Below are positions 5,723-63,555 of a stretch of DNA of 64,000 nt, piece after piece. Each line of letters opens with the position of its first letter. The first letter of the stretch is position 1. A program made the position numbers and the translations under genes. The stretch lies in NCBI RefSeq assembly GCF_011045215.1, contig NZ_CP049201.1. The stretch is one strand, 5' to 3'. Source of the DNA: Escherichia coli (GTDB taxonomy: Bacteria > Pseudomonadota > Gammaproteobacteria > Enterobacterales > Enterobacteriaceae). The notes beneath the pieces were generated by a model. It was not told where the DNA came from and searched no databases. It worked only from the letters and a program-made list of their open reading frames with translations.

Positions 5723-8700
5723 ATGATTACTATTGACGGTAATGGCGCGGTTGCTTCGGTCGCATTTCGCACCAGTGAAGTTATCGCCATCTACCCTATT
5801 ACCCCCAGTTCCACGATGGCAGAACAGGCTGATGCCTGGGCCGGAAACGGCTTAAAGAACGTTTGGGGAGACACACCACGCGTGGTTGAAATGCAGTCGG
5901 AAGCGGGTGCTATCGCTACCGTGCATGGCGCTTTGCAGACGGGTGCCCTTTCAACATCGTTTACATCATCGCAGGGTTTGCTGCTGATGATCCCGACGCT
6001 GTACAAACTGGCAGGCGAACTAACACCGTTTGTCCTGCATGTAGCGGCACGTACCGTTGCCACACATGCACTCTCTATTTTTGGCGATCATTCCGACGTC
6101 ATGGCGGTGCGCCAGACGGGTTGCGCGATGTTGTGTGCGGCAAACGTCCAGGAAGCGCAAGACTTTGCTCTCATTTCGCACATCGCGACGCTGAAAAGCC
6201 GCGTGCCATTTATTCATTTCTTTGATGGTTTCCGCACGTCCCACGAAATCAATAAAATTGTCCCGCTGGCCGATGACACGATTCTTGATCTCATGCCGCA
6301 GGCCGAAATTGATGCTCATCGCGCCCGGGCGCTCAACCCGGAACATCCGGTGATCCGCGGTACGTCCGCCAATCCTGACACTTATTTCCAGTCTCGCGAA
6401 GCCACCAACCCTTGGTACAACGCGGTCTATGACCATGTTGAACAGGCGATGAATGATTTCGCTGCTGCGACAGGTCGTCAGTATCAGCCGTTTGAGTATT
6501 ACGGGCATCCGCAAGCGGAACGGGTGATTATCCTGATGGGCTCTGCCATTGGCACCTGTGAAGAAGTGGTTGATGAATTGCTAACCCGTGGCGAAAAAGT
6601 CGGCGTGCTGAAAGTTCGCCTGTACCGCCCCTTCTCCGCTAAACATTTACTGCAAGCTCTGCCGGGATCCGTACGCAGCGTGGCGGTACTGGACAGAACC
6701 AAAGAAGCCGGTGCCCAGGCAGAACCGCTCTATCTGGATGTGATGACCGCACTGGCAGAAGCCTTTAATAATGGCGAGCGTGAAACCCTGCCCCGTGTCA
6801 TTGGTGGGCGCTATGGTCTTTCATCCAAAGAATTTGGTCCGGACTGTGTACTGGCGGTATTTGCCGAGCTCAACGCGGCTAAACCGAAAGCGCGCTTTAC
6901 GGTTGGTATTTACGATGATGTGACTAATCTGTCACTGCCGTTGCCGGAAAACACCCTGCCAAACTCGGCGAAACTGGAAGCCTTGTTTTATGGCCTTGGT
7001 AGTGATGGCAGCGTTTCCGCGACCAAAAACAATATCAAGATTATCGGTAATTCCACGCCGTGGTACGCACAGGGCTATTTTGTTTACGACTCCAAAAAGG
7101 CGGGCGGCCTGACGGTTTCTCACCTTCGAGTGAGCGAACAGCCGATTCGTTCCGCTTATCTCATTTCCCAGGCTGATTTTGTTGGCTGCCACCAGTTGCA
7201 GTTTATCGATAAATATCAGATGGCTGAGCGTTTAAAACCTGGCGGCATTTTCCTGCTCAACACACCGTACAGCGCAGATGAAGTGTGGTCGCGCTTGCCG
7301 CAAGAAGTTCAGGCCGTGTTAAACCAGAAAAAAGCGCGCTTCTATGTGATTAACGCGGCGAAAATCGCCCGCGAATGTGGCCTGGCGGCCCGTATTAATA
7401 CCGTCATGCAGATGGCTTTTTTCCATCTGACGCAAATTCTGCCTGGCGATAGCGCCCTCGCAGAATTGCAGGGTGCGATTGCCAAAAGTTACAGTAGCAA
7501 AGGCCAGGATCTGGTGGAACGCAACTGGCAGGCTCTGGCGCTGGCGCGTGAATCCGTAGAAGAAGTTCCGTTGCAACCGGTAAATCCGCACAGCGCCAAT
7601 CGACCGCCAGTGGTTTCCGATGCCGCCCCTGATTTCGTGAAAACCGTAACCGCTGCGATGCTCGCCGGGCTTGGTGATGCCCTCCCCGTTTCGGCGCTGC
7701 CGCCAGACGGCACCTGGCCGATGGGCACTACGCGCTGGGAAAAACGCAATATCGCCGAAGAGATCCCCATCTGGAAAGAGGAACTCTGTACCCAATGTAA
7801 CCACTGTGTTGCCGCTTGCCCACACTCAGCTATTCGCGCAAAAGTGGTACCGCCTGAAGCGATGGAAAACGCCCCTGCCAGCCTGCATTCGCTGGATGTG
7901 AAATCGCGTGATATGCGCGGGCAGAAATATGTCTTGCAGGTGGCTCCGGAAGATTGCACCGGTTGTAACCTGTGCGTCGAAGTTTGCCCGGCGAAAGACC
8001 GTCAGAATCCAGAGATTAAAGCCATCAATATGATGTCGCGCCTGGAACATGTCGAAGAAGAGAAAATCAATTACGATTTCTTCCTCAACCTCCCAGAAAT
8101 CGACCGTAGTAAACTCGAACGTATTGATATTCGTACATCACAGCTGATTACACCGCTGTTTGAATATTCAGGTGCTTGCTCCGGTTGTGGCGAGACGCCG
8201 TATATTAAATTGCTGACTCAGCTCTATGGTGACCGGATGTTGATCGCTAACGCCACCGGCTGTTCTTCAATTTATGGCGGTAACCTGCCCTCTACACCGT
8301 ATACTACCGATGCCAACGGTCGTGGTCCGGCCTGGGCGAACTCTCTGTTTGAAGATAATGCCGAATTTGGCCTGGGTTTCCGCCTGACGGTCGATCAACA
8401 CCGTGTACGCGTGCTGCGTCTGCTGGATCAATTTGCCGATAAAATCCCGGCGGAATTACTGACTGCGTTGAAATCAGACGCCACGCCAGAGGTTCGTCGT
8501 GAACAGGTTGCAGCTTTACGCCAGCAACTCAACGATGTTGCCGAAGCACATGAACTGCTGCGTGATGCAGATGCGCTGGTAGAAAAATCAATCTGGCTGA
8601 TTGGTGGCGACGGCTGGGCTTACGATATCGGCTTTGGCGGTCTGGATCATGTATTGAGTTTGACAGAAAACGTCAACATTCTGGTGCTGGATACGCAATG

Positions 8701-9247
8701 CTATTCCAACACCGGTGGTCAGGCGTCGAAAGCGACACCGCTGGGTGCAGTAACTAAATTTGGCGAGCACGGCAAACGTAAAGCGCGTAAAGATCTTGGC
8801 GTCAGTATGATGATGTACGGTCATGTTTATGTGGCGCAGATTTCTCTCGGCGCGCAACTGAACCAGACGGTGAAAGCGATTCAGGAAGCGGAAGCGTATC
8901 CGGGACCATCGCTGATCATTGCTTATAGCCCGTGTGAAGAGCATGGTTACGATCTGGCACTCAGCCATGACCAGATGCGCCAACTCACAGCTACCGGCTT
9001 CTGGCCGCTATATCGCTTCGATCCGCGTCGTGCCGATGAAGGCAAACTGCCGCTGGCGCTGGATTCACGCCCGCCGTCAGAAGCACTGGAAGAAACGTTA
9101 CTTCACGAGCAACGTTTCCGTCGTCTGAATTCGCAGCAGCCAGAAGTGGCAGAACAGTTATGGAAAGATGCTGCAGCTGATTTGCAAAAACGCTATGACT
9201 TCCTGGCACAAATGGCCGGAAAAGCGGAAAAAAGCAACACCGATTAA
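5723..9247 (+). CDS. ydbK: Pyruvate:flavodoxin/ferredoxin oxidoreductase (PFOR)
   Basis: 1174-aa ORF; two 4Fe-4S ferredoxin motifs (CTQCNHCVAACP, CTGCNLCVEVCP) and TPP-binding region (GGDGWAYDIGFGG). Confidence 0.97.
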   Translation: MITIDGNGAVASVAFRTSEVIAIYPITPSSTMAEQADAWAGNGLKNVWGDTPRVVEMQSEAGAIATVHGALQTGALSTSFTSSQGLLLMIPTLYKLAGELTPFVLHVAARTVATHALSIFGDHSDVMAVRQTGCAMLCAANVQEAQDFALISHIATLKSRVPFIHFFDGFRTSHEINKIVPLADDTILDLMPQAEIDAHRARALNPEHPVIRGTSANPDTYFQSREATNPWYNAVYDHVEQAMNDFAAATGRQYQPFEYYGHPQAERVIILMGSAIGTCEEVVDELLTRGEKVGVLKVRLYRPFSAKHLLQALPGSVRSVAVLDRTKEAGAQAEPLYLDVMTALAEAFNNGERETLPRVIGGRYGLSSKEFGPDCVLAVFAELNAAKPKARFTVGIYDDVTNLSLPLPENTLPNSAKLEALFYGLGSDGSVSATKNNIKIIGNSTPWYAQGYFVYDSKKAGGLTVSHLRVSEQPIRSAYLISQADFVGCHQLQFIDKYQMAERLKPGGIFLLNTPYSADEVWSRLPQEVQAVLNQKKARFYVINAAKIARECGLAARINTVMQMAFFHLTQILPGDSALAELQGAIAKSYSSKGQDLVERNWQALALARESVEEVPLQPVNPHSANRPPVVSDAAPDFVKTVTAAMLAGLGDALPVSALPPDGTWPMGTTRWEKRNIAEEIPIWKEELCTQCNHCVAACPHSAIRAKVVPPEAMENAPASLHSLDVKSRDMRGQKYVLQVAPEDCTGCNLCVEVCPAKDRQNPEIKAINMMSRLEHVEEEKINYDFFLNLPEIDRSKLERIDIRTSQLITPLFEYSGACSGCGETPYIKLLTQLYGDRMLIANATGCSSIYGGNLPSTPYTTDANGRGPAWANSLFEDNAEFGLGFRLTVDQHRVRVLRLLDQFADKIPAELLTALKSDATPEVRREQVAALRQQLNDVAEAHELLRDADALVEKSIWLIGGDGWAYDIGFGGLDHVLSLTENVNILVLDTQCYSNTGGQASKATPLGAVTKFGEHGKRKARKDLGVSMMMYGHVYVAQISLGAQLNQTVKAIQEAEAYPGPSLIIAYSPCEEHGYDLALSHDQMRQLTATGFWPLYRFDPRRADEGKLPLALDSRPPSEALEETLLHEQRFRRLNSQQPEVAEQLWKDAAADLQKRYDFLAQMAGKAEKSNTD

Positions 9248-9275
9248 ATGCTCTGTATAAGGATTATCCAATTCT

Positions 9276-9312
9276 AAAAAAAAGCCCGGACGACTGTTCG
9301 GGCTTGTCTTTT
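9276..9312. terminator. Bidirectional rho-independent terminator shared by ydbK (+) and micC (-)
   Basis: A8 run, hairpin GCCCGG-ACGACTGT-TCGGGC, then T-rich tract; read directly. Confidence 0.8.
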
Positions 9313-9385
9313 TATATGTTGGAAAATCAGTGGCAATGCAATGGCCCAACAGAAAATAAAATCTGTGACAATAAAGGCATATAAC
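9277..9385 (-). ncRNA. micC: MicC small regulatory RNA (Hfq-dependent, represses ompC)
   Basis: Minus strand reads GTTATATGCCTTTATTGTCACAGATTTTATTTTCTGTTGGGCC...CCGGGCTTTTTTT, matching the known MicC sequence; lies between ydbK and ompN as in K-12. Confidence 0.9.
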
Positions 9386-9612
9386 CCGCGCAGAATAACG
9401 TATAGAAAATTAAAAGTATAATTTTTATTTTGTATGTATTATCTTCGATACATTCACCAGACTTATTATCATTTCAGAGGAATTATTTGATTAAGGTTTT
9501 ACTTAAGGCGTAACAAATGATATTTATCGGCTAACTGAACTTCTCCTTTAGGATGTTTTCACTCCCCGAAATGGGGATCAAAGGCAAATAAAATAACTAA
9601 AGGATTTATTCA

Positions 9613-10746
9613 ATGAAAAGCAAAGTACTGGCACTTTTAATTCCTGCCCTGCTCGCCGCAGGTGCTGCACATGCAGCCGAAGTTTATAATAAAGACGGCA
9701 ACAAATTAGATCTGTATGGCAAAGTTGATGGCCTGCATTATTTTTCTGATAATTCAGCGAAAGATGGCGACCAGAGCTATGCGCGTCTGGGTTTTAAAGG
9801 CGAAACCCAAATTAACGATCAACTTACTGGCTACGGTCAATGGGAATACAATATTCAGGCAAACAACACTGAATCTTCAAAAAACCAGTCATGGACCCGT
9901 CTGGCATTTGCCGGACTGAAATTTGCAGATTACGGTTCTTTCGATTACGGACGTAATTATGGCGTAATGTACGACATCGAAGGCTGGACCGATATGCTGC
10001 CTGAATTTGGCGGTGACTCTTATACCAATGCAGACAACTTTATGACTGGTCGTGCCAATGGCGTCGCGACTTATCGTAATACTGATTTCTTCGGTCTGGT
10101 AAATGGTCTGAACTTCGCGGTGCAGTATCAAGGTAACAACGAAGGTGCCAGTAATGGTCAGGAAGGCACCAACAACGGACGTGATGTTCGCCATGAAAAC
10201 GGTGACGGCTGGGGTCTTTCCACAACATATGATTTAGGCATGGGCTTTAGCGCTGGTGCGGCATACACCTCTTCTGACCGCACCAATGACCAGGTTAACC
10301 ATACTGCGGCGGGTGGTGATAAAGCAGACGCGTGGACTGCTGGGCTAAAATACGATGCTAACAATATTTACCTGGCAACCATGTATTCAGAAACGCGTAA
10401 TATGACCCCGTTTGGCGACAGCGATTATGCAGTTGCGAACAAAACCCAGAACTTTGAAGTCACTGCACAGTACCAGTTTGATTTTGGTCTGCGTCCGGCA
10501 GTCTCTTTCCTGATGTCTAAAGGCCGTGACCTGCACGCTGCCGGTGGTGCAGACAACCCGGCAGGTGTTGATGATAAAGATCTGGTTAAATACGCCGATG
10601 TTGGCGCGACTTACTATTTCAATAAAAACATGTCCACCTATGTTGACTATAAAATCAACCTGTTGGATGAAGATGACAGTTTCTACGCTGCCAACGGCAT
10701 CTCTACCGATGATATTGTCGCTTTAGGTCTGGTTTATCAGTTCTAA
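9613..10746 (+). CDS. ompN: Outer membrane porin OmpN
   Basis: 377-aa ORF, signal peptide [21 protein letters not shown], porin C-terminal ...LGLVYQF; synteny. Confidence 0.95.
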
Positions 10747-10754
10747 ATCCTCCT

Positions 10755-10778
10755 GCCCGCTGTTATGGCGGGCTTTTT
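10755..10778 (+). terminator. Rho-independent terminator of ompN
   Basis: GCCCGC-TGTTATG-GCGGGC followed by TTTTT. Confidence 0.8.
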
Positions 10779-11785: not shown

Positions 11786-11815
11786 AAAATCCCCAGTTGT
11801 CAGCAACAACTGGGG
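11786..11815 (-). terminator. Rho-independent terminator after the HTH-peptidase gene
   Basis: CCCCAGTTGT-CAGC-AACAACTGGGG hairpin followed by a U-rich tract on the minus strand. Confidence 0.7.
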
Positions 11816-11873
11816 ATTTACTTTTCAGGCCCAAAAGACGTTCACTACGACTCTAGATGTGAGCATTTACGGG

Positions 11874-19850: not shown

Positions 19851-19876
19851 AAAAAACCCGCTTTCGCGGGTTTTTT
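19851..19876 (-). terminator. Hairpin terminator (bidirectional form) right after the cargo nuclease gene, inside the tail operon
   Basis: AAAAAA-CCCGC-TTTC-GCGGG-TTTTTT. Confidence 0.75.
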
Positions 19877-42820: not shown

Positions 42821-43277
42821 GTAAAAAAACACCCCGTCAAAGGCACCCGCAGATACCTTTTGTGTGGTGTTATCTGGTGTTTTCTGGTGTGGTGTGTGCA
42901 GGACACAGATGTGAAAAAGGTCCGCTGGTACGAACCCTGTATATGGATAAAAAAATGCCCGTCAGGAGACGGGCCAGAGCATTCATCGTGTAGTAATAGA
43001 ATTATATTTATATATGGTCGCCACCAGAATGAGTCGTCAACCTACAAAGCCATCCTGGCTTACTGTACGTGTGCGCATGGAACAGGTAACGACTCATTCT
43101 GCTAACGACGTTTACAAGTAATAATCACATACCATTATGTAATACAAAAAAAAGCAGCACTGAAACTGTAACCGTTCAGATATTACAGCATGAAGAAAAA
43201 CAATAGTACCTACAAAGCTGTTCTCCGCGAAAATTCGCCAGTGCTGATAAAGCTATGCCTCGTTTGTTTTACAGGAG

Positions 43278-43349
<72 letters not shown>

Positions 43350-43352
43350 ATA

Positions 43353-43428
<76 letters not shown>

Positions 43429-58629: not shown

Positions 58630-58856
58630 GCGCAGCCACAAAGCTCACAGGAGAAAAACCAGTGCGATACACAAAAATTAAACCATGTCCATTTTGTGGT
58701 TGTCCATCAGTAACGGTGAAAGCCATTTCAGGATATTACCGAGCGAAGTGTAACGGATGCGAATCCCGAACCGGTTATGGTGGAAGTGAAAAGGAAGCAC
58801 TCGAAAGATGGAATAAACGAACCACTGGAAATAATAATGGAGGTGTTCATGTATAA
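58620..58856 (+). CDS. Lar-family restriction alleviation protein (RalR-like)
   Basis: 78 aa with zinc-ribbon motif KPCPFCGC...CNGCE typical of Lar. Confidence 0.6.
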
Positions 58857-59037
58857 AATTACCGCCACTATTGAAAAGGAAGGTGGCACTCCTACTAACT
58901 GGACAAGATATTCAAAATCTAAACTAACGAAATCAGAATGCGAAAAAATGCTCTCAGGTAAAAAAGAAGCGGGCGTTTCCAGAGAGCAGAAAGTAAAACT
59001 GATAAATTTTAATTGCGAGAAACTTCAGTCCTGGTGA
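58849..59037 (+). CDS. Hypothetical small protein
   Basis: Track ORF 58777..59037; internal start [10 protein letters not shown]... assumed. Confidence 0.35.
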   Translation: MYKITATIEKEGGTPTNWTRYSKSKLTKSECEKMLSGKKEAGVSREQKVKLINFNCEKLQSW

Positions 59038-63338: not shown

Positions 63339-63366
63339 AAAAAAAAGCCGACTCATCAAAGTCGGC
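63339..63366 (-). terminator. Rho-independent terminator ~190 nt downstream of zntB
   Basis: Minus strand: GCCGAC-UUUGAUGAG-GUCGGC followed by U8. Confidence 0.6.
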
Positions 63367-63555
63367 GTCGTACGAATCAATTGTGCTATGCAGTAATTCA
63401 AAAAAGGAAGTAAGACAATATGGAGCGCAACGCCCATCGCTTGACGTTGCATTCACCTGCAAGAGAGATATTGCCCTGAATGGGTAGAGAGTTTATTGAC
63501 TTCGCTCAAACTTTGCGGCGTTTTTGTATACAGACAGCCGGAAAAATTGCTTTTG

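Follow-up and report, generated by a model that had tools for sequence, protein, structure and literature searches.

A hairpin shared by micC and ydbK in Escherichia coli: a strong MicC terminator and a candidate partial terminator or pause site for the convergent gene

Hairpins shared by convergent genes are widespread in E. coli and have been described as a class (Ju 2019). At the overlapping bidirectional terminators recognised by SEnd-seq (Ju, Li and Liu 2019), a single hairpin lies between convergent units, with flanking A/T tracts and U tracts that are asymmetric between the two directions. For the hairpin at ynaJ–uspE, Ju 2019 and Wang 2022 are reported to give release without convergent transcription as 9 % one way and 39 % the other, the longer U tract being on the stronger side. 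Leaky intra-operon terminators and attenuators, in which a hairpin with an imperfect U tract stands between co-expressed genes of the same strand, offer a second comparison. A third is provided by micF–ompC, where a porin-repressing sRNA is encoded divergently from another porin gene; the parallel with micC has been drawn in PMC5745476, which also describes MicC as an Hfq-dependent repressor of OmpC.

The micC–ydbK locus of E. coli has points in common with each of these systems. With micC, its terminator and its convergence with ydbK, the locus is already annotated in K-12. The arrangement is an ordinary case of a known class, and no explicit description of a terminator shared by micC and ydbK was found in the literature searched. 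The locus differs from the SEnd-seq examples in that one of the partners is an sRNA which depends on the terminator for its own function, and in that published expression data point to strong read-through one way; as that class requires mapped 3' ends, micC–ydbK is a candidate member. Like the leaky intra-operon elements, it places a hairpin and an imperfect U tract between two same-strand, co-expressed genes, ydbK and ompN, but it is constrained mainly by a gene on the opposite strand. The description of micF–ompC, for its part, does not include a convergent metabolic gene that shares the sRNA's 3' end and reads into the porin gene.

The window analysed here is a 64,000-nt stretch of an E. 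coli chromosome (contig NZ_CP049201.1), and the features around the hairpin are collected in Table 1. The Rfam model of MicC (RF00121, gathering score 90) matches 9268–9388 on the minus strand at 125.3 bits (E = 2e-19), covering model positions 1–123 of 123. In the K-12 RefSeq annotation micC occupies 1437121..1437231 (+) and ydbK 1437260..1440784 (-), leaving a gap of 28 nt, and alignment to this record maps micC onto 9276–9385 (-). These are the coordinates and strand given in the preliminary description, which the Rfam match and the K-12 alignment thus bear out. The annotated K-12 end, 1437231, aligns with the last U of the run after the hairpin, so that by annotation the 3' end of the sRNA lies where the preliminary description had put it, and not elsewhere. 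The seed, GUUAUAUGCCUUUAUUGUCAC, is identical in K-12 and in 30 loci from five genera. This 5' seed of MicC is expected to pair with the ompC leader. Synteny in the window is as expected for micC, which is divergent from ompN and convergent with ydbK/nifJ, and the ydbK product carries POR_N, POR, EKR, PFOR_II and Fer4, the full Pfam domain set of a pyruvate:ferredoxin/flavodoxin oxidoreductase. From the ydbK stop codon, 28 nt separate the A run and 36 nt the stem, in keeping with the earlier estimate of about 30 bp. The length of the micC–ompN intergenic region agrees with that reported in PMC5745476, likewise 227 nt. A 63-aa open reading frame over the terminator (9158–9349, minus strand) was set aside, as it starts with TTG, overlaps both micC and the 3' end of ydbK, and is without support.

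Table 1. Features of the micC–ydbK–ompN locus, in window coordinates
Feature	Coordinates	Strand	Details and basis
ydbK (nifJ/pfo) CDS	5723..9247	+	1174 aa, pyruvate:ferredoxin/flavodoxin oxidoreductase; ORF list, Pfam, RefSeq name nifJ/ydbK
ydbK stop codon	9245..9247	+	TAA
Spacer from ydbK stop to A8 tract (= MicC 3' end)	9248..9275	+	28 nt; sequence; 28 nt in the K-12 annotation too
micC	9276..9385	-	110 nt: 5' seed GUUAUAUGCCUUUAUUGUCAC, middle stem-loop, terminator hairpin, then U8
A8 on plus strand = U8 tail of MicC on minus strand	9276..9283		Sequence
Palindromic GC-rich hairpin	9284..9303		Stems 9284–9291 and 9296–9303, loop 9292–9295
Interrupted T tract TTGTCTTTTT	9304..9313	+	Putative U tract for termination in the ydbK sense; read on the minus strand, the A-rich AAAAAGACAA ahead of the MicC hairpin
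micC–ompN divergent intergenic region	9386..9612		227 nt; contains the micC and ompN promoters
ompN porin gene	9613..10746	+	Same strand as ydbK; ORF list, Pfam Porin_1 (E = 1e-145), RefSeq
Strong intrinsic terminator 3' of ompN	10755..10778	+	GCCCGCUGUUAUGGCGGGC then TTTTT; window-wide terminator scan, d = +24.7

The locus closely resembles its counterpart in K-12 (micC b4427, ydbK b1378). The gene, its neighbours and the 28-nt gap are the same, the hairpin and the TTGTCTTTTT tail are identical, and the surrounding 221-bp region is 98 % identical. The differences are an A9/U9 run in K-12 as against A8/U8 in the window, two flanking SNPs, and a smaller Rac-type prophage in K-12. Within E. coli the run varies further, from A8 in the window and A9 in K-12 to A10 in isolate A21005-2. 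PGAP-annotated RefSeq genomes of E. coli list nothing under micC, which appears only in the curated K-12 record. Two other small RNAs were located in the window, RalA at 58855–59033 (-) and FnrS at 63343–63460 (-), along with an adjacent tRNA-Gly(tcc)/tRNA-Thr(tgt) pair at 43277–43428 (-). The distance from micC to fnrS is ~54 kb in the window and ~28 kb in K-12, which points to a larger lambdoid prophage of the Rac type in the window (~12000–61000). In strain Combat11I9 a full-length Rac-like prophage adjoins uspF–ompN, the tRNAs not being annotated there.

The hairpin structure exceeds chance expectation on both strands. A 51-nt segment folds at -17.8 kcal/mol on the plus strand (z = -5.3) and at -14.7 kcal/mol on the minus strand (z = -4.7), with none of 200 shuffled sequences as stable in either case. 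In the plus-strand RNA the stem has 8 bp, including one G.U pair (G9289/U9298), and the core of -13.3 kcal/mol reaches -17.8 kcal/mol with its A/U extension. The MicC-strand stem has 5 + 2 bp around a single A.C mismatch and a core of -9.3 kcal/mol, and is followed directly by a perfect U8. The preliminary description had seen one A8/hairpin/T-run structure serving both genes. The palindrome is indeed common to the two, but the T run on the ydbK strand is interrupted: in the ydbK-sense tail, UUGUCUUUUU, 8 of the 10 nt are U, with breaks at positions 3 and 5, whereas the U8 of MicC is unbroken.

Terminator sites were scored with a d'Aubenton-Carafa-type discriminant into which ViennaRNA energies were entered; the use of modern energies in a discriminant of 1990 makes its zero point approximate. 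Across the whole window 22 sites have d > 0, compared with 0.87 +/- 0.81 in block shuffles. The MicC-sense site scores d = +22.9 (rank 13 of the 22 positive sites) and the ydbK-sense site d = +6.3 with a T score of 3.24 (rank 20 of 22), an asymmetry that is plain in the scores themselves. The MicC face is a strong, textbook intrinsic terminator; the ydbK face is borderline by score and marginal as a terminator. As a yardstick, rrnB T1, which has a similarly interrupted tail, gives d = +14.6 and T = 3.42 when scored in this way. From local base composition, the probability of a tail as T-rich as TTGTCTTTTTATATG, given the hairpin, is 0.014. In the interval from the ydbK stop to ompN a consensus terminator scan called a single terminator-like site, on the plus strand; it missed the terminator of MicC itself because the A.C mismatch splits the stem, and it was dropped as evidence, one site comparing with 1.3 +/- 1.3 in shuffles. 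Two other palindromic hairpins in the window, at 19857–19870 (d = 25/26) and 11790–11816 (d = 23/6), are also positive on both strands, so two-sided terminator hairpins are common even in this one window.

These figures bear on the possibility that the element is an efficient two-way intrinsic terminator, a single hairpin which cleanly ends both MicC and ydbK with negligible read-through. An A tract, a hairpin and a T tract are present on both strands, the consensus scan calls the plus-strand site, and two-sided hairpins occur elsewhere in the window. The positive d, the tail probability of 0.014 and the more stable plus-strand hairpin (-13.3 against -9.3 kcal/mol for the core) would also be compatible with fairly efficient termination of ydbK under non-inducing conditions. 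Against this stand the interruptions in the ydbK-sense U tract, together with the variability of the tail and the expression data considered below, and on balance a clean two-way stop seems unlikely.

The comparison of related genomes separates the two faces of the hairpin. An exact-pattern scan for the MicC seed yielded a comparative set of 30 loci from Escherichia, Citrobacter, Salmonella, Superficieibacter, Pseudocitrobacter and related genomes. In nearly all 30, ydbK runs towards MicC and ends at a distance of 17–33 nt from it (~27 other species), and an ompN-like porin gene lies ~224–294 nt upstream of micC, divergent from it and on the ydbK strand, although it is absent in both Salmonella loci. 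The hairpin is near-invariant among 28 distinct sequences, 8 of 10 pairs being fixed and one pair covarying from C-G to U-A. A run of U7–U10 follows the MicC-sense hairpin in 30/30 other loci, and d in this sense reaches +32 to +59 in other genera. The ydbK-sense tail behaves differently. In Citrobacter and Salmonella it reads TTGTCAATTTAT, with d about -6, and in Superficieibacter TTGTCATAAATA, with d down to -25, both below threshold. The tail TTGTCTTTTT occurs only in Escherichia (d +4 to +13), where all sampled lineages carry the T5 tail or a near variant. MicC-sense features are thus invariant, while ydbK-sense terminator features are not conserved among relatives. As judged from these alignments, selection evidently acts on the MicC face, and the ydbK face would be at best weakly maintained, and that only in Escherichia.

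The layout of ydbK converging on micC is therefore common to at least five genera and is not diagnostic alone of the host, as had been supposed when the shared structure was taken to confirm host identity. The identification of the host does hold on other grounds: the sequence is 99.8–100 % identical to E. coli genomes, and it has the hairpin allele GCCCGGAC, which among sampled loci is found only in E. coli and its close relative Escherichia sp. MOD1-EC7003. The A.C mismatch is limited, among the same loci, to E. coli sensu stricto and MOD1-EC7003. Stem changes in E. coli sensu stricto and in strain E69 leave A.C or C.A in MicC and G.U in the ydbK-sense RNA; these substitutions are two independent events. 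A stem substitution in one Superficieibacter locus (L004) has the reverse asymmetry.

Insertions were also encountered at this position. An element of the IS200/IS605 family lies between the MicC T run and the ydbK stop in E. coli SC418 and in a Citrobacter MAG, that is in two genera, with the same MicC-sense junction, ...GGGCTTTTTTT/GTGCACAG... In both cases the insertion parts ydbK from the shared hairpin (E. coli SC418, locus L037, ~1580–2290; Citrobacter MAG, locus L011, ~1–130). The insertions suggest a hot spot at the micC terminator.

The lack of conservation on the ydbK side lends some weight to a reading in which the hairpin is a terminator for MicC only. Its reverse face would have no role, ydbK would end only after ompN or by the action of Rho or RNA decay, and the T-rich tail would be a by-product of the A-rich sequence that MicC needs ahead of its hairpin. 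The variability of the tail within E. coli and the evidence for read-through (operon report, arrays and fusions) agree with this, as do the unconserved tails TTGTCAATTTAT and TTGTCATAAATA set beside invariant MicC-sense features. However, a hairpin of -13 to -18 kcal/mol followed by 8 U in 10 nt should at least pause RNA polymerase, the improved T5 tail or a near variant is present in all sampled Escherichia lineages, and the two independent stem changes in Escherichia keep the ydbK-sense G.U while breaking the MicC-sense pair. Furthermore, the stretch from the hairpin to ompN (9305–9612, plus strand) is AT-rich, with 15 % C and 16 % G. Rho-dependent termination of ydbK in this interval was considered and is unlikely by base composition, as the stretch is not a typical C-rich loading site. 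A role confined to MicC is accordingly quite improbable.

The locus occurs, as a single copy, in 5412/5426 complete E. coli genomes. Three alleles of the ydbK-sense tail were counted by exact match: TTGTCTTTTTATATG (TTTTT) in 3717 genomes (~69 %), with d in the ydbK sense of +6.3; TTGTCTTCTTATGTG (TTCTT) in 860 (~19 %), with d of 0.0; and TTGTCTCATTATTTG (TCATT) in 530 (~11 %), with d of -4.9. Such a spread, from just above the approximate zero point to below it, speaks against a clean two-way terminator. The mismatch stem allele (9289/9298) is carried by at least 5107/5426 E. coli genomes. A repeated element, whether a REP or an IS end, was ruled out by a median of one place per genome. Three to five plasmid-typed records contain the chromosomal region 8900–9700, and in strain YZMc3-1 an IS1 lies within this 801-bp stretch.

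Evidence that transcription continues past the hairpin comes from expression studies. According to the summary of Fabrega 2012 in PMC6176095, a second-hand account, ydbK and ompN were found to be 'coexpressed in an operon' controlled by SoxS. In the paraquat time course of MG1655 by Blanchard et al. 2007 (PMC2064960, Table S1), four contiguous probe sets, ompN, IG_1434918_1435144-r, micC and ydbK, fall in the SoxR-dependent induced cluster 1. The second of these corresponds exactly to the 227-nt ompN–micC spacer, on the ydbK/ompN strand. Co-clustering on an array is not proof of a single RNA, and it is uncertain from which strand the micC probe signal comes. Dam et al. 2017 found that paraquat caused no significant change in micC-lacZ and ompN-lacZ fusions bearing only the intergenic spacer, so that the SoxS signal must come from outside the intergenic region. 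The ydbK promoter is the obvious source of the SoxS signal reaching ompN. The simplest reading of these data would be SoxS-driven transcription which starts at the ydbK promoter, passes through the hairpin and runs antisense across micC into ompN. The co-induction of the four probe sets, the unresponsive spacer-only fusions and the operon report, as far as its summary goes, all argue against a hairpin that cleanly ends ydbK. Neither micC nor ydbK appears in the supplements of Adams 2021 (Term-seq) or Yan 2018 (SMRT-Cappable-seq).

MicC is itself listed as a SoxR-dependent sRNA from array data (PMC2064960, Table S1). Given the geometry of the locus and the paraquat-unresponsive reporter fusions, this array signal may be ydbK read-through rather than activation of the micC promoter.

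Taken together, the evidence favours, with a probability of about 0.68, a strong MicC terminator whose reverse face is a partial, leaky terminator or pause site for ydbK. On this reading the hairpin at 9284–9303 and its U8 would serve MicC, an Hfq-dependent sRNA, primarily as a Rho-independent terminator and probably also as a 3' Hfq-binding module. The stem being palindromic and ydbK converging on it, a polymerase coming out of ydbK copies this element in the opposite direction, and would meet an A8 tract, a more stable hairpin and the interrupted U tract UUGUCUUUUU, a combination expected to give partial termination or pausing. Some ydbK transcripts would then end ~57–66 nt past the stop codon, overlapping MicC at their 3' ends by up to 38 nt. 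The remainder would continue antisense over all of micC, across the 227-nt spacer on the plus strand, and into ompN. The product would correspond to the reported ydbK–ompN co-transcript, the strong terminator after ompN being the likely end point of any such read-through RNA. The ydbK 3' ends, the fraction of polymerases reading through and any consequence for MicC are what we infer from this scheme. Thus, of the claim that the hairpin is a bidirectional terminator, the part concerning MicC is strongly upheld, whereas the statement that it terminates ydbK went further than the marginal d of +6.3, the polymorphic tail and the read-through data allow. That ydbK read-through would be antisense to micC, as also proposed at the outset, is fully so by geometry.

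A different role for the hairpin is conceivable if it belongs to the collision-dependent bidirectional terminators of the SEnd-seq type. It would then serve mainly as a pause site, and the ending of ydbK would need head-on and trailing collisions with polymerases from micC. A shared convergent hairpin with weak intrinsic features one way is what Ju 2019 and Wang 2022 are reported to describe, for instance at ynaJ–uspE. However, such a mechanism needs simultaneous and frequent transcription of both units, whereas the MicC promoter is weak by inspection, no consensus promoter being called, and in one survey MicC was undetected in late logarithmic or stationary growth. Collision as the main cause of ydbK termination is hence very improbable.

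The leaky reverse face might also have been put to use. It is tempting, though doubtful, to regard it as a tuned, Escherichia-specific valve, through which SoxS-induced read-through from ydbK switches on the otherwise silent ompN and could lower MicC activity. The T5, TTCTT and TCATT alleles could set the degree of coupling, and it would fit that a T-rich tail was gained in Escherichia relative to Citrobacter and Salmonella and that the two independent Escherichia stem substitutions preserve ydbK-sense pairing only. These hints are thin, and we know of no regulatory input that modulates read-through at the micC–ydbK hairpin. Were the valve real, a 110-nt perfect antisense to MicC, together with interference from convergent transcription, could shift porin balance under oxidative stress.

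For the interpretation of existing data, the arrangement means that the 'induction of micC and ompN' by SoxS or paraquat on arrays is probably read-through from ydbK rather than promoter activation. The strength of the stop on the ydbK side varies among E. coli lineages. Finally, where micC is deleted or engineered, or its terminator reused as a part, effects on the formation of ydbK 3' ends and on ompN expression are to be expected.
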